A stretch of 10,043 nt of DNA, taken from the IMG/VR virus record IMGVR_UViG_2639762982_000013, positions 1 to 10,043 of that record, one strand, 5' to 3'. Of the stretch, positions 1 through 10,043 are shown piece after piece. The DNA is from a virus. Taxonomy: Duplodnaviria > Heunggongvirae > Uroviricota > Caudoviricetes. Positions within the stretch are counted from its first letter, which is position 1. Each line of letters begins with the position of its first letter. Both the position numbers and the translations under genes were made by a program. The notes beneath the pieces are model-generated. The model made no database searches and had not been told where the DNA came from. It worked only from the letters and a program-made list of their open reading frames with translations.

Positions 1-516
1 ATGAAATTTAAAAAATGTCTTCTGCCTGTGGCAATGTTAGCGTCATTCACTCTGGCAGGATGCCAGTCAAATGCTGACGATCATGCCGCCGATGTTTATC
101 AAACCGATCAACTGAATACCAAACAAGAAACTAAAACCGTTAATATTATTTCCATTCTTCCCGCAAAAGTTGCCGTAGACAACTCCCAAAATAAACGGAA
201 CGCACAAGCCTTCGGCGCGCTTATTGGCGCAGTCGCTGGCGGTGTTATCGGCCACAACGTCGGTTCTGGCAGCAATTCCGGAACGACGGCAGGGGCAGTT
301 GGCGGCGGAGCTGTAGGCGCGGCAGCGGGTTCTATGGTGAATGATAAAACCTTAGTGGAAGGTGTTTCTTTAACATATAAGGAAGGCACCAAAGTGTATA
401 CCTCTACCCAGGTGGGTAAAGAGTGCCAGTTTACGACAGGTTTAGCCGTTGTTATTACCACAACGTATAACGAAACGCGTATTCAGCCAAATACTAAATG
501 TCCTGAAAAGAGCTAA
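1..516 (+). CDS. yfgH: Outer-membrane lipoprotein with glycine-zipper domain (YfgH-like); host gene
   Basis: 171-aa ORF. Lipoprotein signal peptide with lipobox LAGC (Cys21). Gly/Ala-rich GxxxG zipper segment (GALIGAVAGGVIGHNVG...). Gene symbol from memory of E. coli K-12 yfgH (same length class), not verified. Confidence 0.8.
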   Translation: MKFKKCLLPVAMLASFTLAGCQSNADDHAADVYQTDQLNTKQETKTVNIISILPAKVAVDNSQNKRNAQAFGALIGAVAGGVIGHNVGSGSNSGTTAGAVGGGAVGAAAGSMVNDKTLVEGVSLTYKEGTKVYTSTQVGKECQFTTGLAVVITTTYNETRIQPNTKCPEKS

Positions 517-531
517 TAATCAGGAGGAGTC

Positions 532-1071
532 ATGAAGAAAGTTTTTCTTTGCGCCATCTTGGCCTCCTTAAGCTATCCGGCTATCGCCTCATCATTGCAG
601 GATCAACTCTCTGCTGTAGCAGAAGCTGAACAGCAAGGTAAAAATGAAGAGCAAAGGCAGCATGACGAATGGGTCGCGGAGCGCAACAGGGAAATCCAGC
701 AAGAGAAGCAACGTCGCGCAAATGCCCAGGCCGCCGCTAACAAAAGAGCGGCAACGGCAGCAGCAAATAAGAAAGCTCGTCAGGATAAACTGGACGCCGA
801 AGCCTCTGCGGACAAAAAACGCGATCAAAGTTATGAAGATGAGCTACGCAGCTTAGAGATTCAGAAACAAAAACTGGCGCTGGCGAAAGAAGAAGCCCGC
901 GTTAAGCGAGAAAACGAATTTATCGATCAGGAACTGAAGCACAAAGCTGCGCAAACCGATGTGGTGCAATCTGAAGCTGACGCCAACAGAAATATGACTG
1001 AAGGCGGTCGCGATCTGATGAAAAGCGTGGGCAAAGCAGAAGAGAACAAATCGGACAGCTGGTTTAATTAA
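532..1071 (+). CDS. yfgI: Secreted/periplasmic charged coiled-coil protein (YfgI-like); host gene
   Basis: 179-aa ORF, strong SD AGGAGG 7 nt upstream. Sec signal peptide (…AIA/SS), then K/E/Q/A-rich low-complexity helical region. Synteny with the preceding yfgH-like gene; symbol from memory. Confidence 0.75.
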   Translation: MKKVFLCAILASLSYPAIASSLQDQLSAVAEAEQQGKNEEQRQHDEWVAERNREIQQEKQRRANAQAAANKRAATAAANKKARQDKLDAEASADKKRDQSYEDELRSLEIQKQKLALAKEEARVKRENEFIDQELKHKAAQTDVVQSEADANRNMTEGGRDLMKSVGKAEENKSDSWFN

Positions 1072-1110
1072 TCGATGTTAGTAACTTCAAGCCTATGATT
1101 CTTGAAGATA

Positions 1111-1142
1111 AAAAACCCTCTGTAGTAACAGAGGGTTTTGTT
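1111..1142. terminator. Bidirectional rho-independent terminator downstream of yfgI
   Basis: A5-CCCTCTG-tagtaa-CAGAGGG-T4: 7-bp GC-rich stem with A-tract before and T-tract after, so it is readable on both strands. Confidence 0.6.
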
Positions 1143-1267
1143 CATTCATAGTGCAGGGATTAAAATCATTCCCACTCAATTATTTACGACACGCATAACC
1201 AATTGACTGATAACAACTTTCTGCAACCTGACTTTCACCGTACCGTTTTATATACCGTCACCGAAAA

Positions 1268-1765
1268 TCAGTACCACGATTTTTGCTTCTTCAGTGAATC
1301 GTATTGCTGTTCGCAGGATTCTCCTGCAATCCGATACTTTTCAGCCTCAGCTGCTGTTGCGTTGTAAACTCGATTGCTTTCTTCAAGCATGTCGGCGAGC
1401 ACACCGATGACCTTGCTGGCTGGCGTGCCAGTGGGGAAAGATCCGGTATAGTGTTCGGCGAGTCGCTTGGTTTTGTCAAGCTCGGCGCGCAGGCTGTCAG
1501 CAGCGGCATTAGCATGCTCAGCATCAACACGCGCCACATCGATACGGGATTGTGCTTCACGTTCAATTTGTGTTTTCTCCTGATCACGTTGTGACCTAGC
1601 CTTATCATTAGCCTGTTTCTGATCTTCCTGTGCCTGCGCATACCCGGCGTCGTACTGACGACTGCCGTGTGCATTCCAGGCTACAACTCCTGATATGACC
1701 AGAACAGCAAGCATCGCCATGATAACCAACTGTTTCCAGTATGCTTTTACGAATGCCCAGATCAT
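1268..1765 (-). CDS. Phage i-spanin (Rz-like inner-membrane spanin subunit)
   Basis: 165 aa with N-terminal TM helix, then charged helical periplasmic domain. Start overlaps endolysin stop (ATGA). Last gene of the lysis cassette and contains an embedded lipoprotein ORF. Confidence 0.7.
1291..1539 (-). CDS. Phage o-spanin (Rz1-like outer-membrane lipoprotein), embedded in the i-spanin gene in another frame
   Basis: Internal Met of the 127-aa alternate-frame ORF gives [17 protein letters not shown]…: signal peptide plus lipobox LTAC, then a Pro/Ser-rich short mature region, as in lambda Rz1. Fully nested in 1268-1765. Exact start uncertain (alternative Met at 1524); no strong SD. Confidence 0.55.
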   Translation of the reverse strand: MWRVLMLSMLMPLLTACAPSLTKPSDSPNTIPDLSPLARQPARSSVCSPTCLKKAIEFTTQQQLRLKSIGLQENPANSNTIH

Positions 1766-2391
1766 ACCGCCAGCGCCTTACTGGCAGTGATGTACCGAGC
1801 GCGCCGGTCGTCGATGCCGTTCCTGCCACCATTGATAATCAGAGTTACACGTGCAATATCGCCGGTATACTTCATGCAACCTTTGCTGGAGAAGAACCAC
1901 GCCGCGCTACGAGCCGCGTATTCGTCCTGCGCCAACAGTTCAGGATTCTCCAGCAGGTCCACTTTCAGGCCGTTTCCGCAATCACGATAGTTATTCAAAC
2001 CGGTAATCTGGATAAGTCCGCGGCCACGGTAATTCCAGCCATCACCAGAGGCATTGTTCCCCATGCGTTTGCTGTACACCAGATTGGCGATCGCTCTCTG
2101 GCGCTCGAGTGGCAATGGTGGTTCACCAGCACGGCGACCAAGTGCATTAGCCTGTCCCTGAGTGAGACGCCCAGCCCGAACGAAGTTAGCCAGTCCGGTG
2201 ACGCTGTAGTTGAAATTTTCCTGCAACCGGGTGAATCCACCAGACTCATGCCCGACCTGAGCAATAAACATTGCCTGATCTTCAGCTTTGCTGATACCAA
2301 ACTCTTTCATCGCAGAAGTTATATGCGAGAACCAGCGTGCGGCCAGCGCCTCGCTAATACCAGCAGCTCGCTGGAATTGTTTAATCTCCAT
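1762..2391 (-). CDS. Phage endolysin, glycoside hydrolase family 19 (chitinase class I-like)
   Basis: 209 aa. Motifs [21 protein letters not shown] and AAWFF typical of GH19 phage lysins. SD GAGG 8 nt upstream. Flanked by membrane proteins and spanins. Confidence 0.9.
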
Positions 2392-2689
2392 GTTTAGACC
2401 TCGTTATTTTAAAAATCTGCACGACGTTACCGCGCGTTTTAATAACCGCAGCTAGCATGACAGCGTTGATAATGACCTCAGATAAATCCACAGCCATTGG
2501 CGTACGTAACCAGATTGCATAGGCGACACGAACAGGAATACTGGCCGCAGCAACAATCAGGAAATAAGCAAGCCATCCTCCCCACCTTCGGTGTTGAGAG
2601 CCGTTACGCCGGAATGTGACAACGCGAATTGCTATGCCAGTGCAAATAACTGCATTGGTGATAAGCAAAAAAAACTCATGCGTTACCAT
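2381..2689 (-). CDS. Lysis-cassette small membrane protein (holin/antiholin-like)
   Basis: 102 aa with 2-3 predicted TM helices. SD GGAG 8 nt upstream. Overlaps the upstream gene by 14 nt and the endolysin start by 11 nt, indicating translational coupling. Confidence 0.55.
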
Positions 2690-3089
2690 CGTCTTTTCTC
2701 CCCGGAATTAACTCGCGTGGATTATCGGAACGGTGATAAAGCCATATACCAATTCGCACAGCGACAATTGACGACACAAATGCGCCAGCAGAGAAGACGA
2801 TCCCTTTCTCGAAAGAGTCCTGCGTGATGGTAGGGATCAGGCTGGCTACACCGATAAGGATGGATGCTGTAGGTTTGTAAAAGAGAAGGCCGCAGAGGAA
2901 GCTGAGCATAGACAGGAGAACCCGGCGATGAATGGGATACTCGATGGCTGAGGTAACAAAAATTACCGCCCCAGCCAAAGCTCCCAAAGCCACCTCTGGA
3001 GGAACCCCTGCTATCACCGCAGCAAGAGAACTCGCACTAAGCCACTGATTTAAAGACTCACTGGTTAGCTGAACTGACATAAAAAACAC
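2676..3089 (-). CDS. Putative holin (multi-pass membrane protein), first gene of lysis cassette
   Basis: 137 aa with 3-4 hydrophobic helices and a charged C-terminus. Position directly upstream of the endolysin. Start may be the second ATG at 3080. Family not recognised. Confidence 0.55.
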   Translation of the reverse strand: MFFMSVQLTSESLNQWLSASSLAAVIAGVPPEVALGALAGAVIFVTSAIEYPIHRRVLLSMLSFLCGLLFYKPTASILIGVASLIPTITQDSFEKGIVFSAGAFVSSIVAVRIGIWLYHRSDNPRELIPGRKDDGNA

Positions 3090-3185
3090 CGTTTAATGTG
3101 CATAAAGAATCCCCTTAGTTGGTTAGTTCATCATACACAATAAACCATATGTGGATTAAACTTGATCTGATAATTCTTAACGAAA

Positions 3186-3200
3186 TTACCTTAAAGGTGA
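3186..3200. promoter_or_regulatory. Palindromic site A (TTACC-TTAAA-GGTGA), member of a five-copy family
   Basis: Lies in the 212-bp gap between the tail fibre and the lysis operon, about 100 bp upstream of the holin start. One mismatch from a perfect palindrome. Flank ATATC is shared with site C. Confidence 0.4.
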
Positions 3201-3301
3201 TATCATAAATATCCTTGTGTCATTTAAAATTAGAGTTAGGGCATGATAGCCAACATACAATATTTGCGTTTTCTCGCTGCATTCCTTGGCGATGACTTCT
3301 C

Positions 3302-5065
3302 TTAAACAACAATTTTAAGGAAATTTGAAGCATCCTTATAGATGGTGCCCGCGGTGGCGCCGTTTATCTCCTCAAGCGTTTTTACATTCTTCAAAACCAC
3401 CTTGCCATCTTCCAGAAATTCAATGCATGGTGCGTCGTTGTTCATGTTTATTTTCAACGAACCAACAGCACTACCTCCGTTTCCGCTTATCCATTCAAGT
3501 GACGCAATAGGAAGTGCATTGCCGTTGTGATCTGTCCCTTGTAGCAAGATCCTTCCAGTTCCTACCCCTGGTATTCTGATAGCTGCGCGACCACCATCCT
3601 CTAAAACTACTTCCAAAATTTCTTTAGGATATTTTGTGTGCACTCCTACACGCGTCAGCGAACCACCACCACCAGGGACGACGGCAATACCTGGAATAAG
3701 CGATTCTGCAAAAAGCATCACTGAGTCTTTATGTGGATTGATTGCTGGCTTATCGTCATTAGTGCCGCTCCCTATCGCAATCGAACCACCATAAGCCTGA
3801 ATATTCTTACCTACAGCAAAAGAGCCATCTCCTGCCGCGCGAGTTCGATATCCAATGGCTGCCGCACCAATGCCATCACTTGCAACCCCGCCGGGGTCTG
3901 TAGTGTATCCCGGTCTGGCTTGTGTATAATAACCTGTTGCAAAAGCCGCCCTTGAAAGCGCTTCCGTTTCTTCACAGAATGCGGCAGATTTTGCTCCAAG
4001 AGCAATGACATTTTTCCCAAATGCAAAAGAGCAGTACCCCTCAGCATTTGGTGAGGTAATATGATCTGGGTCCCCAGTGGCAGAACCAGCACCACCGGCA
4101 ATAGATGCCACGCCGTACGTAACGCAGTCATGCCCGAAAGTTGTGGTGTATACCGCGAATGACGCACCGTTTCTGTTAAAAGATACTGAGTAATCACCGA
4201 TAAGAGCCGGGTTACACCATGAATTTCTCGGTGTAGGCAAGCCTCTCCAGAAGTTCTTTTCATCGTCAAGTGGTAGGAGATCGGCACCACCAATTCTCAG
4301 CCAACCTTTATCCTTATCAAAAGAAAAAGTGACGCCATCGGTTAAAGTAGATCCAACCGGTATACCGTAATTAACTTTTGTGCCAATCCTCTTAAGCCCG
4401 TCAGGTTGCGCCAGCAATAACAGAACATCTGCTGCACTACCGCTCTCAGGCAAGACCATAATGGACTCACCTGCATAATCATATGCATGGATCATATTTG
4501 CACGTTCTGCAGCAGGAGGGAGTTGCCGCGTAAATGACTCTGGAACCCTTAACGTGTGCAGATAGTTGTTGTTACTAATCGTGTCTACATAATTTTTAGT
4601 GGCAGCATCCTGCGGGTCTCGTGGGTCGCGCAGGTTGCGAATGTAATTCCCCAGCGCGTCGTACCAGTTAGCGATGGTTGATGGCTTGCGCAGCGCCAAG
4701 GCAAACCAACTGCGAACCTGCTGGATCAGCATCGTCAGTTTATCGAATGCGTCTTCATGCACCTCAGCGAAGAACTTACCCTGGTTGCGCAGATCGGTAT
4801 CCTGCGTAACCGGTAGCTCTCTTGATATAGAAATCTGATAACCGTTAGCCAACGCCTTCGACAGAATTACATTGCCGCCGTTATACCCTCCCGCACCAGT
4901 GACTATGTAATCAGTATCAAGAATCAGCTCTGTGATGTTCTCGTTCAGGTCAACAACCTGCACTACTAAATCAGATTTCTGGAAAATCCTGAAGGTATAA
5001 GGGAATGCCGTTGTAACACCGTTACCTGTGTATTCGTTGTGGTCAACTTCGGTTGAGACCGTCAT
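3302..5065 (-). CDS. Phage tail fibre / tailspike protein
   Basis: 587 aa. The N-terminal ~150 aa (MTVSTEVDHNEYTGNGVTTAFPYTF…DYIVTG) resembles the conserved T7 gp17-type virion-attachment domain. The C-terminal two thirds are Gly/Ala/Ser-rich with repeated beta-strand-like motifs (SFAVGKN, SIAIGSGT, IGAAAIGY), as in trimeric receptor-binding domains. Confidence 0.85.
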   Translation of the reverse strand: MTVSTEVDHNEYTGNGVTTAFPYTFRIFQKSDLVVQVVDLNENITELILDTDYIVTGAGGYNGGNVILSKALANGYQISISRELPVTQDTDLRNQGKFFAEVHEDAFDKLTMLIQQVRSWFALALRKPSTIANWYDALGNYIRNLRDPRDPQDAATKNYVDTISNNNYLHTLRVPESFTRQLPPAAERANMIHAYDYAGESIMVLPESGSAADVLLLLAQPDGLKRIGTKVNYGIPVGSTLTDGVTFSFDKDKGWLRIGGADLLPLDDEKNFWRGLPTPRNSWCNPALIGDYSVSFNRNGASFAVYTTTFGHDCVTYGVASIAGGAGSATGDPDHITSPNAEGYCSFAFGKNVIALGAKSAAFCEETEALSRAAFATGYYTQARPGYTTDPGGVASDGIGAAAIGYRTRAAGDGSFAVGKNIQAYGGSIAIGSGTNDDKPAINPHKDSVMLFAESLIPGIAVVPGGGGSLTRVGVHTKYPKEILEVVLEDGGRAAIRIPGVGTGRILLQGTDHNGNALPIASLEWISGNGGSAVGSLKINMNNDAPCIEFLEDGKVVLKNVKTLEEINGATAGTIYKDASNFLKIVV

Positions 5066-5169
5066 GTTAAATCTCCAGATAGTCGCAGCACCCGTTGCGC
5101 CGCATATCTGGTTATTCTATTACCTGAAAAACCACATATGGATAGAAAGACTATAAATACCAATAGATA

Positions 5170-5184
5170 TTACCTTTCGGGTAA
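5170..5184. promoter_or_regulatory. Palindromic site B (TTACC-TTTCG-GGTAA)
   Basis: Perfect 5-bp inverted arms with a 5-nt spacer in the divergent region between the tail fibre gene and the small SOS-box gene. Confidence 0.4.
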
Positions 5185-5221
5185 TTTGCAAAACGTGCTG
5201 GATAGCAAACAAATTATTTGA

Positions 5222-5241
5222 TACTGTATATTTATACAGTT
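5222..5241. promoter_or_regulatory. LexA (SOS) box
   Basis: TACTGTATATTTATACAGTT matches the E. coli LexA consensus TACTGTATATATATACAGTA at 18/20, with CTGT-N8-ACAG intact. Located 20 bp upstream of the ATG at 5261 and overlapping a plausible -10. Confidence 0.7.
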
Positions 5242-5260
5242 ATTGCATGGAGAAGATAAG

Positions 5261-5518
5261 ATGCAGCAGTATCACTATCCACTGGAAGACGGATTTACCG
5301 AAAGGATTCACACGCCGGGAGGCGTCAGGTCACTGGTGGAGGGATCGCACTTGATGAAATTACTCCGGGATCTCGATAAGGATGGATTTAATGTCGATGG
5401 CCCACTTGCCGAACTGACTGCACTGATTAACTACGTCACCAGCTCACAGATGTCTATGCTGGATCTGCAAACACATCTCGACTATTGTGCCGAACAATTA
5501 CGAAAACAAACCCGGTAA
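5261..5518 (+). CDS. Small SOS-regulated protein, candidate Tum-like antirepressor (homologous to C-terminal domain of the AntA protein at 6669-7325)
   Basis: 85 aa from the ATG at 5261 with SD GGAGAAG; the ORF track extends it to a TTG at 5243. Roughly 40% identity by eye to the last ~80 aa of the 218-aa AntA-domain protein (IH[TS]P[GS]GV…LM.LL..L..DG..V.G..AELT…D.QTH..Y). LexA box immediately upstream. Confidence 0.6.
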   Translation: MQQYHYPLEDGFTERIHTPGGVRSLVEGSHLMKLLRDLDKDGFNVDGPLAELTALINYVTSSQMSMLDLQTHLDYCAEQLRKQTR

Positions 5519-5522
5519 ATTT

Positions 5523-5542
5523 AAAGGCCGCAAGAGCGGCCT
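5523..5542. terminator. Bidirectional rho-independent terminator between convergent genes
   Basis: AGGCCGC-aaga-GCGGCCT stem-loop with A-rich 5' flank and T-rich 3' flank. Sits between the + gene ending at 5518 and the - gene ending at 5541. Confidence 0.6.
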
Positions 5543-6269
5543 ATCGTTTCGCTTTGTGCTCGTCCCAGCACGTTTTGCACCATGCCATTAAGCCATCCGC
5601 ATTTTGATTATTAGGGTAAAAGCTTGTTCGTTTTCTGCGGACATTACAAATTGGGCACCACTTCATATGGCGTGTATTCTTTGGGCCATCGAGACACCTT
5701 GCACACCACTTAGTCAATCCATCTGGATTTTTTGACGATTTCCTGAATTTTTCATATGGTAGGTTTATTCTGCATCGCAAGCACTGCTTGCTACCACTTG
5801 AAACTCTGTTAGCTGATTCTTCTTTTGGCGGCGATACAGAAGGTATTCTTGCTGGCTCTGATACTGCCTGAGGTGCTTTTTTAGATGACTGAGACGATAT
5901 GTCATCACCAGGGAATCTTCCATGATATGCCGGACGCGTTGACACTCCAGGTGGAAGCTCAGCTGTAAACGGCTTTGGCTGAATCAGTTGCCTCTCTTTT
6001 GCTAACTCCTGCTGTTTATAATATGTCTGGATTACCGCACTATCATAAGCAGGAGGTGCGGAAATATTAGGCGCATTACCTCCAGTTTTTTGAAACTGAG
6101 TAGAGGTGTGTTCTATCACCTGTGTACGATTAATCGTTATCTCCCCATCTTCGGTCTTTATCGTTTTGTTATGATTAACGACCGTACGATCAGAGATCTT
6201 AGTCTTGTTCTGGTTGATAACGTAAATAATCACCGCAACCACACCAACAACTATCCAGAAAACTTCCAT
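5541..6269 (-). CDS. Membrane-anchored protein with tandem C4 zinc-ribbon repeats (function unknown)
   Basis: 242 aa. N-terminal TM helix (residues ~4-20) followed by K/R (positive-inside), a Pro/Ser/Gln-rich linker, then two copies of CxxC-x16-DGL-x2-WC-x2-C. SD GAGGA 8 nt upstream of the ATG. Confidence 0.7.
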   Translation of the reverse strand: MEVFWIVVGVVAVIIYVINQNKTKISDRTVVNHNKTIKTEDGEITINRTQVIEHTSTQFQKTGGNAPNISAPPAYDSAVIQTYYKQQELAKERQLIQPKPFTAELPPGVSTRPAYHGRFPGDDISSQSSKKAPQAVSEPARIPSVSPPKEESANRVSSGSKQCLRCRINLPYEKFRKSSKNPDGLTKWCARCLDGPKNTRHMKWCPICNVRRKRTSFYPNNQNADGLMAWCKTCWDEHKAKR

Positions 6270-6289
6270 TGCTTTTCCTCACAATAACA

Positions 6290-6304
6290 TTACCTTAAAG
6301 GTAA
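6290..6304. promoter_or_regulatory. Palindromic site C (TTACC-TTAAA-GGTAA)
   Basis: Perfect palindrome about 10 bp upstream of the SD of the minus-strand zinc-ribbon gene. Core identical to sites A and D. Confidence 0.4.
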
Positions 6305-6382
6305 TATCTTGCTTTCAGGTGATCAAGCGTTAAACGCAATCAACCAAATACGGTTGATTTTAATATTTCTTCGCGTTTATCA

Positions 6383-6397
6383 TTACCTTTGCGGTAA
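6383..6397. promoter_or_regulatory. Palindromic site E (TTACC-TTTGC-GGTAA)
   Basis: Same arms as the other sites, with a spacer like site B. Lies just upstream of the structured leader preceding the AntA gene. Confidence 0.35.
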
Positions 6398-6488
6398 ATT
6401 TACATTGCACTCCTCTTGTGCCATAGTAATCGGGCACTGGCAAAATCCAGTGCCGGGATTGGTCTCCCGGATTACTAAGTGGCGCATA

Positions 6489-6510
6489 CCACGCCAGACG
6501 TGGTTTTTTT
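6489..6510 (+). terminator. Putative intrinsic terminator / attenuator hairpin in the leader of the AntA-like gene
   Basis: CCACG-ccaga-CGTGG followed by T7. Preceded by two GC-rich hairpins (6433-6454 and 6453-6470) that share bases, so alternative pairings are possible. Confidence 0.4.
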
Positions 6511-6668
6511 ATGCGTATAGCACAGTCATGCCAGAATTATGGTGGGCTGAATGGGGGTCCGAAAGGACGCCGGTACCACTTAGGCCGGTAAGACCAACTC
6601 CGTTCAGTTCACCACCATCTGATTGGTCTCAGCGGTGGTGATGTAATTCGCTAAGTGGAGACGCCATC

Positions 6669-7325
6669 ATGAACGCTCAACTCATCCCCGTATTCAACGG
6701 CACTATATCTAACGAAACAGCCCTACTTTGTAATGCCCGCGATCTGCACGCTTTTTTAGGTGTTAAAAAGGTGTTTGCAGCATGGATTACAAATCGCATA
6801 TCAGAATACGAATTCATTGAAAATCAAGACTATATTTTGCTTTCCAATTTGGGAAAGCAAACATCTGGTAGAGGCGGCCACAACCGCAAAGAGTACCACC
6901 TCACCCTTGATACAGCCAAAGAGCTGGCGATGGTCGAGCGTAACGAAAAAGGTCGCCAGGTGCGACGCTACTTCATTGAATGCGAGAAACGTTTAAGACA
7001 ACAAGAAACAAAAGTGGAGAAGGTCTTGTCAGGCTTCATGCCCGCCATTATGGAGGCGATCAAGCTGGAAGACAAAAAAGAATACAGCGCCCCACTGAAG
7101 CCCGGCTACCGCAGCCTGATTCATTCGCCGTCTGGTGTTCTTGGACTGACGGAGAACTCACTGCTGATGAATCTGCTGAACCAGTTACAGGACGACGGGC
7201 ATGACGTATCGGGCGCGGCGGCGGAGCTGACCACCATGTTCTGCTACATCGTCGGTGTGAGCAAATGCCTGCGTGATATCCAGACGCACGCGGAGTACAT
7301 CAGCGACAAAGCAGGATTCTTCTGA
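6669..7325 (+). CDS. Phage antirepressor-like protein, N-terminal AntA-type domain with a C-terminal domain shared with the 5261-5518 protein
   Basis: 218 aa, SD GGAG 8 nt upstream. N-terminal region ([10 protein letters not shown]…[33 protein letters not shown]) matches the AntA/pRha-type antirepressor N-domain pattern. C-terminal ~80 aa is paralogous to the small SOS-box protein. Confidence 0.8.
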
Positions 7326-7391
7326 CGGGCGGCGGCACAGGGATGTGCCTTTAAAATAATCATTGGCGATGTGATGTAGATTCGCGTAATA

Positions 7392-7448: not shown

Positions 7449-7775
7449 ATGACAAAACTTGGATTCGTGATGAGAGGTCCGGTAAGAAGCGGAACTCATG
7501 CAAAGCGTAGCAAGAGTCGTATTTTTACTGGTAAGGTTGTAGCACGTAAATCAGCTATTGGCTCGTTCAATAGTGAAAATGCGGCATTGCGCCATATTTT
7601 TATCAGCACAAAGCCAAGAGCATCCGCTGATGTGCATACAATGTCTATTCCTATCACAAAGAATATAAAGCGGATAAAAAAGCTCTCATCTGCAGAATCA
7701 AAAGAGATATCTTTCCGCCAGCTTAACTCATTAGAAACGCATATGAAGGAAGAGGAATTCGATGTTTTTGAGTGA
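7449..7775 (+). CDS. Small highly basic protein, candidate antitoxin / partner of the downstream YafO-like protein
   Basis: 108 aa, SD GGAG 8 nt upstream. Very K/R-rich N-terminal two thirds and an acidic C-terminal tail (EEEFDVFE). Overlaps the downstream gene by 14 nt. No recognisable Phd/YefM or other antitoxin fold from sequence. Confidence 0.5.
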   Translation: MTKLGFVMRGPVRSGTHAKRSKSRIFTGKVVARKSAIGSFNSENAALRHIFISTKPRASADVHTMSIPITKNIKRIKKLSSAESKEISFRQLNSLETHMKEEEFDVFE

Positions 7776-8274
7776 GTATAGCGGGAAGGTTATACCTACT
7801 GGTGAGTTTAAAACTGATGACTTTCTGATTTCGCTAAAAGATGCTTTTAAACAACACTGGCGTCATGGTCATCATCCTGATCTGGGAAAAGATACTCTTT
7901 TTGAAAGACCAGACGAAGTATTAGGCTTCCATCTCAGAAAGGTTCATGTCAATATTGGTGAATATGCATCATATTCATACTCATGTACTGAACAGTGTTG
8001 GGATGAGTGGTCATATGGATTGATTGATGAACAAGGAAATTACAGGCCAAAACCAACCAGTAACGCATATCTCATATATGCAGTCAATGAAATAAGAGAT
8101 GCAGCCTTACTAGCTTATTGGGACCCGCCCGCACACACCAAAGCTAACGCAAAAGTTTGGATGGATTCCGTATTGAATTTCACAAAATTATTTCATGAAC
8201 GAACGAATACAGCCCCACTTAGTAGAAATGTTTATCCGTGGGATTATTCGTACAAATCCAAAAAGCCTGCATAG
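7762..8274 (+). CDS. YafO-like toxin-domain protein (putative ribosome-dependent mRNA interferase)
   Basis: 170 aa with a strong SD (AGGAAGAGGA). From memory of E. coli YafO, the motifs align: PDLGKDTLFE / FHLRKVHVNI / AYLIYAV…AALLAYWDPPAHTKA versus YafO PDIFGRDALYD / FERVAHIHLA / AHLVYCQ…AWLLIAILKPEPHKLA. About 40 aa longer than YafO. Local GC is about 38-40% against about 50% in the flanks. Confidence 0.55.
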   Translation: MFLSEYSGKVIPTGEFKTDDFLISLKDAFKQHWRHGHHPDLGKDTLFERPDEVLGFHLRKVHVNIGEYASYSYSCTEQCWDEWSYGLIDEQGNYRPKPTSNAYLIYAVNEIRDAALLAYWDPPAHTKANAKVWMDSVLNFTKLFHERTNTAPLSRNVYPWDYSYKSKKPA

Positions 8275-8845: not shown

Positions 8846-9040
8846 GTAGTTACCTATTTACCCAGTAAAAATCAGAGGCCTCCCCTCAATAAGGCTTGCA
8901 ACAAGAACTACTCCCTGCACAACAAAGATGAACCAGCAAATAGCTTGAGTCTGAGGGTTAAGAAAATATTTGTAGCGGTCAATAAATAACAGTCCACCAG
9001 AAATTATCACACTCAAAATAATTAAAAACACAACACTTCC

Positions 9041-9865
9041 TTATTGCGGAGTGACATCCTGAGGTCGCCACCAGTATGTCTGGTTAAACTCTTTCTTCGA
9101 ACGTTGCTCCATTTTACGCAAATAGCCTGGTGAAAAATACTCCTGCATCTGGTTAAAGATCATGTGATCGAGAGCCGCCTTCAAGTACCAGAGATTCGCA
9201 CCAGGCATCAAACCTTTCCCCAGCTTCACCAGATCACCACCAGTCTGCTCACTCTTCCCTTCCACAGCATTTAACGGTATGCCCTGAGCAATCTTCACTA
9301 CGTCATCAACCAGACCAGCTACCGGGCCAAGCATCGACGCCAGCGCGCCGCTTCCGTACCTAGTGTGATCTGACAATAAAAAGTCACCGTAAAGGCCAAG
9401 ACCACCACCTTTCAGTAGAGCACCAAGCCAAAATTTAGCAGCATCTTCTCCTGTCATCTCGCGAGGATTACGACCAGACGCAAGGTCGTTAAGTTGCTGC
9501 GACAAAGCGCCAAGAATGGTCGTACTGGCAATAAACGTCGCAATATATGCCGCACGCCCACCAGCAGACGGCATACCCATAGCGCGTGACCAGTGACGCA
9601 TAACCACCGAGATAGGGAACGATTTAAACAGGAAAACACTTCTCGTTAATTCACCTTTCCATGTTCCACGCTGAATACCAGAACCGGTTATCAGTTGCTC
9701 ACGTGCTCCCGGTGTAATAACAGCCATATCAACTTCTTCAGTTACGGCACCGAGCAGTTTACGCATTGCCTCAAATTTCACGCGTTCAGGCTCACCAAGA
9801 TGTTTAACTGCTGAATCAGGGATACGCATAATGCTTTCCGGTGTCAGCATCGTATTATTACCGTT
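9041..9865 (-). pseudogene. 3' fragment of a phage protein (possibly virion/ejection-associated) truncated by IS2 insertion
   Basis: The 283-aa ORF listed from 9892 takes its first 9 codons (MSGNIGANP) from inside the IS2 terminal repeat. The native reading frame continues upstream across the IS boundary at 9865/9866, so the N-terminal part of the gene lies beyond IS2. No family recognised. Confidence 0.55.
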
Positions 9866-10043
9866 TGGATTTGCCCCTATATTTCCAGACACCTGTTATC
9901 ACTTAACCCATTACTGGCTTGCTGCCGTAGATATTCCCGTGGCGAGCGATAACCCAGTGCACTATGCGGATGCCATTCGTTATAATGCTCGAATGCCTCT
10001 GCAAGGTTCTTTGCTGCCGTTAACCCGTCTGGTTTGGGCATGA
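9866..10043 (-). mobile_element. IS2 (IS3 family), partial: right terminal repeat and 3' end of the transposase; the element continues beyond the window
   Basis: The reverse complement of 9866-9908 reads GGTTAAGTGATAACAGGTGTCTGGAAATATAGGGGCAAATCCA, which matches the IS2 right end as I recall it. The adjoining ORF encodes an IS3-family transposase C-terminus. Confidence 0.8.
9877..10043 (-). CDS. insD: IS2 transposase OrfB (InsD) C-terminal end, partial
   Basis: Minus-strand translation …[54 protein letters not shown] with stop at 9877-9879. The motif [13 protein letters not shown] is characteristic of the IS3-family integrase C-terminus. The 5' part is outside the window. Confidence 0.8.

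Follow-up and report, generated by a model that had tools for sequence, protein, structure and literature searches.

Tyrosine integrases of the lambda and P4 types bind the core and the arm-type sites of attP, and IHF bends the DNA. For phage ZX5 (vB_EcoP_ZX5), integration has been demonstrated experimentally: its core is given as attgagtgggaatgatt, its attB, attL and attR sites were verified by PCR and Sanger sequencing, and the same sequence is stated to be shown as the attP of phiV10 and epsilon15 too (PMC9782041). A phiV10-like phage has also been described as inserted in the guaA gene of an O103:H25 outbreak strain (PMC3293862), so that both the guaA site and the core were already known from published work (PMC9782041, PMC3293862). 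The same gene end is shared with elements that are not phages, and GIsul2 is reported to integrate at GAGTGGGA, inside this core (PMC9376610).

The window, that is, the whole stretch of 10,043 nucleotides analysed here, carries on its left side host genes and a terminator that are followed by phage DNA. The initial annotation had placed a prophage-chromosome junction immediately after the yfgI terminator, with the att boundary somewhere in 1144-1267, and both statements are borne out by the comparison with complete genomes. The host similarity, which extends over yfgH, yfgI and the terminator, ends at position 1180, and phage DNA runs from 1181 onward. A query of 601 bases (window 900-1500) finds matches in 5412 of the 5426 complete E. 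coli genomes, and the prophage-free ones, K-12 MG1655 included, match positions 900-1180 only, a match that spans yfgI into the end of guaA; when the sequences are set side by side, the divergence from the prophage-free site begins exactly after 1180. At this limit lies the 17-bp att core AATCATTCCCACTCAAT (1164-1180), common to attB and attP; read on the opposite strand, it agrees with the published attgagtgggaatgatt at 17 of 17 positions. By our own arithmetic, about 1e-6 exact matches to a given 17-mer are expected on the two strands of 10 kb, and the location of such a match exactly where the host similarity stops is for that reason no chance event. Since the host match and the divergence meet at 1180, the junction is placed at 1164-1180, inside the interval first proposed. 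The alignment against the empty yfgI-guaA site that the initial annotation had recommended has thus provided both the core and the direct repeat.

The core AATCATTCCCACTCAAT contains the last four codons of guaA (IEWE), its stop codon and two further bases. The reverse complement of positions 1164-1180 reads ATT GAG TGG GAA TGA TT, and the segment 1166-1180 on the minus strand is a copy of the guaA 3' end that was left behind (Ile-Glu-Trp-Glu and stop, read directly as ATT GAG TGG GAA TGA). In K-12, where the guaA coding sequence ends at 2765 and the core starts at 2763 (L002), guaA is the next gene after yfgI, in convergent orientation, and its stop codon is found 93 bases beyond that of yfgI; guaA had been named in the initial annotation as the K-12 neighbour of yfgI, which is confirmed. 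The search for a tRNA or tmRNA target near the junction by ARAGORN and Rfam was negative, as was that of ARAGORN over the whole window, in agreement with the claim that no tRNA is involved. Between the intergenic and the protein-coding targets envisaged instead, the target proves to be protein-coding and consists of the last 15 bases of guaA and 2 bases downstream.

The same core is present in the phiV10 attP (L004 4001-4017), in the K-12 attB and in the guaA-side junction of related prophages. A four-way comparison of the window, the K-12 attB and the two junctions of the prophage of strain A357 finds AATCATTCCCACTCAAT in all of them, with the flanks exchanged around it: the window has the host-left flank, the core and phage DNA, the far junction of A357 has phage DNA, the core and guaA, and K-12 has the host-left flank, the core and guaA. 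As far as these alignments go, the swapping of flanks among the K-12 attB, the window, the guaA-side junction of A357 and the phiV10 attP is exactly what site-specific recombination predicts. Strand exchange must have occurred within the 17-bp core, inside which we infer the cleavage positions to lie. Immediately to the left of the core, the window reads GGGATTAAAATCA (ATTAA, 1159-1163) where K-12 reads GGGTCAAATCA (TCA). This allele was considered as the scar of an earlier integration, an explanation that was rejected on finding prophage-free genomes that are 100% identical over 900-1180; it represents ordinary host variation, since prophage-free strains carry it as well.

On the host side stand two envelope genes, assigned to the host by their Pfam matches and RefSeq annotation. 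The first, yfgH (1-516), encodes a glycine-zipper lipoprotein and has a glycine zipper match in Pfam. The last host gene before the junction is yfgI (532-1071, plus strand), whose product matches Pfam DUF5384 with E=7.5e-62 and which is annotated as yfgI in all the matching genomes. Between the convergent yfgI and guaA, the terminator scan detects the host stem-loop terminator at 1112-1139, with a 12-pair stem and a T-run on the minus strand. Its sequence is identical in prophage-free K-12, and in the lysogen it stands downstream of the phage Rz/Rz1 genes rather than of guaA.

The non-coding segment 1181-1267 aligns with the attP regions of Uetakevirus and constitutes the Rz-side phage arm of attP. 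In phiV10, 317 bp separate the Rz gene from a P4-type integrase gene; the 17-mer is located within this gap, and the Rz-side sequence beyond the core continues like the window, with TATTTAC after the core and then the TACCGTTTTATATACCGTCACC block. The alignment of the arms of the window, of two prophages and of the free phages phiV10, epsilon15, SPN1S and Tyrion gives a mean column identity of 84%, and the invariant blocks are TATTTAC adjoining the core, CATAA..ATTGA..TAACA, TACCGTTTTATATACCGTCA and ATACCGTCA; judged by this alignment, the Rz-side arm is conserved across the genus. An arm-type integrase binding site, ATACCGTCAC, is predicted at 1252-1261 on the plus strand, where the sequence agrees exactly with the integrase binding site that the epsilon15 RefSeq record annotates at the homologous position (L010 2090-2099); direct and inverted copies of the motif occur in the other attP arm of phiV10. 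Likewise, two IHF sites are predicted within 1170-1212 from those of epsilon15 (L010 2008-2030 and 2028-2050, with an offset of 838). The integrase and IHF sites are predictions of the annotators, transferred here by position. The open reading frame 1203-1367 (plus strand) in the arm was discounted as a gene: it is a mechanical one that overlaps Rz on the opposite strand.

The phage genes that follow the arm begin with a lysis cassette on the minus strand. The Rz-type inner-membrane spanin (DUF2514, 1268-1765, minus strand; Pfam E=3.3e-23), the homologues of which are annotated as Rz-like spanins in phiV10 and epsilon15, has its stop codon at 1268. A candidate Rz1 outer-membrane lipoprotein spanin lies within it in the +1 frame (1291-1539, minus strand), with a signal-like start and the lipobox LTAC; the phiV10 and epsilon15 annotations also have an Rz1 embedded at this position, and the start codon assigned in the window is a probable one. 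The cassette continues, still on the minus strand, with an endolysin of glycoside hydrolase family 19 (1762-2391; Pfam Glyco_hydro_19 E=9.7e-10; DNA identity to the phiV10 lysis cassette ~82%), a holin of the Phage_holin_3_7 family (2381-2689; E=5.1e-27) and a second membrane protein or putative holin matching Phage_holin_8 (2676-3089; E=9.5e-13). It is followed by a tail fibre or tailspike gene (3302-5065, minus strand), the part of which encoding the N-terminus is shared with phiV10 gp25: positions 4584-5375 are 86% identical to phiV10, in a segment that overlaps the 5' part of its tail fibre gene and extends into the adjacent region. The remainder of the gene diverges from phiV10, as expected of a receptor-binding domain.

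The lysis region is 77-92% identical to those of the Uetakevirus phages phiV10, ZX5, TL-2011b, Tyrion, SPN1S and epsilon15. In phiV10, epsilon15, Tyrion and SPN1S, the tail fibre gene is followed by optional O-antigen-modification genes, two membrane protein or holin genes, the endolysin, Rz/Rz1, attP and the integrase, and the constancy of the order from tail fibre to lysis genes to attP in these four phages makes it a Uetakevirus hallmark. The window, with its tail fibre, two membrane or holin genes, GH19 endolysin, Rz with embedded Rz1 and attP, matches this order and departs from that of the four phages only by the missing O-antigen-modification gene, none being found in the 212-bp gap (3090-3301) between tail fibre and holins. 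The initial annotation had described lysis genes at the very end of the prophage, right after the tail fibre, as a less common arrangement; the genes are indeed there, but their order is the fixed one of Uetakevirus rather than an uncommon one. Elsewhere, the gap between the tail fibre and holin genes is occupied by oac in phiV10, by a three-gene conversion module in epsilon15, by an O-antigen acetylase gene in Tyrion, by gtrA and acetylase genes in SPN1S and by an acyltransferase gene in prophage 13E0780.

The locus shares with phiV10 the identical core, the arm, the host gene guaA and the series tail fibre, holins, GH19 endolysin, Rz/Rz1, attP and P4-type integrase, and differs from it in the DNA of the lysis cassette, which is only ~82-86% identical, in the distal part of the tail fibre, in the lack of an O-antigen-modifying gene where phiV10 has oac and in the accessory genes of the window region 5.2-8.9 kb. 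With epsilon15, a Salmonella phage and the type member of the group, it has in common the core, the attP layout and, at homologous positions, the RefSeq-annotated ATACCGTCAC integrase sites, the IHF sites and the terminator; it differs in the host, in the DNA identity over the lysis region (~77%) and in the three-gene serotype-conversion module that adjoins the epsilon15 tail fibre. From the comparison, the system would resemble lambda-type integration: its attP would span a few hundred bp and include arm sites, the identical core is short, and the integrase gene adjoins attP. It differs in that its integrase is of the P4 subgroup and in that it targets a protein-coding gene at the 3' end, which the phage restores.

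The window ends ~9 kb into the prophage, and the integrase, the second copy of the core and the guaA end stand outside its 10 kb. No full-length match to the whole window exists among the complete E. coli genomes, the best covering 86% of it at 97.7% identity, and the far end of the prophage was therefore read in two close relatives, A357 and 25-07338. A357 is 99.8% identical over the 601-base query, and identity at the junction is 98-99% in these relatives. Both strains carry a ~40-kb prophage with a 416-aa tyrosine integrase of the arm-type/P4-type, a second core and a full-length guaA of 1578 bp; the structural genes of these prophages are typical of Uetakevirus and include the capsid staple protein gp10, the Bbp16 and Bbp19 families and a T7 gp14-like core protein. 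These relatives thus possess, at the other end, the repeat and the integrase that the initial annotation had proposed to search for, the far end of the window's own prophage being beyond the sequence at hand. In 25-07338, the yfgI-side core (L005 1945-1961) reads AATCATCCCACTCAAT, with one T missing, and the guaA-side copy is intact; the missing T reflects either a true mutation, by which excision could be impaired, or a sequencing error in a homopolymer. The core copy of the window, unlike that one, is intact.

From these elements, we consider it almost certain that positions 1164-1267 are the integrase-distal junction of an epsilon15/phiV10-like (Uetakevirus) prophage at guaA. With the lambda convention, in which attL is beside int, it would be attR. 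The mechanism we propose, by analogy with the tyrosine integrases of the lambda and P4 types, starts from a phage attP that would be situated between the Rz/Rz1 spanin genes and the P4-type tyrosine integrase gene and whose 17-bp core has the same sequence as the final 15 bases of guaA and the 2 bases downstream. The integrase, probably together with IHF and arm-type sites such as ATACCGTCAC, would exchange strands inside this core, and the circular phage genome would be inserted between yfgI and guaA. The final codons of guaA would be duplicated by this reaction: the displaced original tail would stay beside yfgI, at window positions 1166-1180, and guaA would stay intact because the phage core would supply the same final codons. 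In the integrated state, the lysis operon with its holin, endolysin and Rz/Rz1 genes would read toward the host terminator 1112-1139, and guaA would read into a terminator carried by the phage, one that the phiV10 and epsilon15 records annotate. The copy present in the window would have arrived through the same integrase reaction.

The junction is correct and corresponds to the published attachment site of a common E. coli prophage type, which was already known; with site, core and phage group all published, it opens no new question. Its value is in the annotation: the prophage boundary is fixed to the base (core 1164-1180, phage from 1181), the type of element and the target are named, guaA is undisrupted, and the 15 guaA-like bases next to yfgI are the scar of a duplication, not a pseudogene.

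Integration at the 3' end of guaA is known and frequent in E. coli: roughly one genome in six has this site occupied. With a 601-base query from K-12 that has the core at its centre, 4567 of the 5426 complete genomes give an unbroken match, and in the other 859 (16%) the match breaks at query positions 293-310, that is, at the core. Other occupants, unrelated to one another, have this core as their junction: a P2-like prophage in strain CEC15 (L007, near 5265), a 3.9-kb island with two DUF262 genes and without integrase in ETEC1738 (L008, near 5265), and a Trb-type conjugative element with a HEPN protein and the ptaRNA1 toxin in strain 203740 (L009, near 5265). All three diverge from the host sequence directly after TCATTCCCACTC. 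GIsul2 and the related islands and ICEs share with the locus described here the guaA 3' end and the site GAGTGGGA, found within the core as TCCCACTC at window 1171-1178, and differ from it in that they are not phages, have other arms and cargo, and form junctions that diverge directly after TCCCACTC.

Could the DNA to the right of 1144 be ordinary conserved chromosome or a fixed island rather than the end of a prophage, a case already raised in the initial annotation? No point in favour of this reading was found, and its probability is negligible: the 4567 genomes with an unbroken query have yfgI directly beside guaA and lack this DNA, the arm 1181-1275 is present in only 567 of the 5426 genomes (10%), and the arm and the lysis genes match those of free phages. 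Another reading assigns the junction to a different element of the guaA site, be it a small defence island, a P2-like prophage, or an island or ICE of the GIsul2 type, and places the Uetakevirus-like genes further in; it draws on the occupation of the same core by such elements in other strains and on the location of the GIsul2 site GAGTGGGA inside it (PMC9376610). The P2-like prophage, the DUF262 island and the Trb-type ICE were each rejected as the source of the window junction, as their flanks differ directly after TCCCACTC; their divergence from the window after TCATTCCCACTC is set against a window that continues base for base like the phiV10 attP, from the core straight into Rz. Nor is the junction of the GIsul2 type, the octamer being in the core but the flank being the phage attP and then Rz. 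As only 87 bp separate the core from the Rz stop codon, there is no room for another element, and we give this explanation next to no credence.

A less remote alternative, which we nevertheless regard as unlikely, accepts the identity of the junction and makes of 1164-1267 the relic of a past integration, the prophage being in decay and no longer excisable. The end of an IS3-family element lies at 9866-10043 and is recognized by its rve_3 domain and by 100% matches to transposase genes of the IS3 family on many plasmids. It cuts into a large gene for a virion protein: the truncated open reading frame (9041-9892, minus strand) corresponds to a gene of 2475 bp in the relatives, and the prophage of the window may therefore no longer make phage particles. 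To this cut at 9866 are added an 860-bp segment specific to the window (5519-6376) and a mosaic pattern of differences from the relatives, which show ongoing rearrangement, the position of the integrase end outside the window, and the 1-bp deletion in the yfgI-side core of the close relative 25-07338. An IS in a structural gene would nonetheless block the production of virions, not excision; the core of the window is perfect (17/17), its arm retains all the genus-invariant blocks and every lysis and tail fibre open reading frame is intact. Moreover, a fossil state would alter only the present activity of the junction, not its identity as the integrase-distal end of a Uetakevirus prophage at guaA. 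We conclude that this copy may be defective for particle production.

The comparison of the attachment sites also reveals a likeness between the terminators of the phage and the host. The integrase-side terminator of the phiV10 attP, 44 bp from the core, has a 10-bp stem, AACCCTCTGT/ACAGAGGGTT, and an identical stem AACCCTCTGT/ACAGAGGGTT is present in the host yfgI/guaA terminator, 25 bp from the core in attB. Between phiV10 (L004 3933-3956), A357 (L003 ~8980-8999) and the window (1114-1137), only the loop differs, AAAA versus AGTA. The terminator of A357 is the same as that of phiV10; in 25-07338, epsilon15 and Tyrion, the stem differs by a single nucleotide. The DNA downstream of the host guaA might have been the source of the attP region of these phages or have influenced its form, a suggestion that we put forward tentatively and with some doubt. 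On this view, integration swaps two near-identical terminators, and guaA and the phage lysis operon both remain properly terminated; and if homology or adaptive mimicry, not coincidence, is at its origin, the element would copy the regulatory 3' context of its target in addition to the 3' coding end.

Some further features were observed in the window away from the junction. Two Rfam matches above the gathering score stand in tandem on the plus strand, isrK at 6434-6510 (67.7 bits) and C4 antisense RNA at 6535-6619 (61.2 bits), just upstream of an AntA/AntB-type antirepressor gene (6669-7325), and the set looks like an RNA-controlled antirepressor module of the P1 c4/ant type inside an epsilon15-like prophage. 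The ~860-bp segment 5519-6376, which is missing from the two closest relatives, holds an open reading frame (5541-6269, minus strand) whose product of 242 aa has an N-terminal hydrophobic stretch and C-terminal Cys-rich motifs; its sole Pfam match, to Stc1, is weak and falls under the cut-off, and it may be a strain-specific accessory gene. Finally, the overlapping genes 7449-7775 and 7762-8274 (plus strand) may form a toxin-antitoxin pair carried by the prophage: the second has a weak match to the YafO toxin (19.7 bits, below the Pfam cut-off), and a type II toxin-antitoxin YafO family toxin is annotated at the corresponding position in strain 25-07338.
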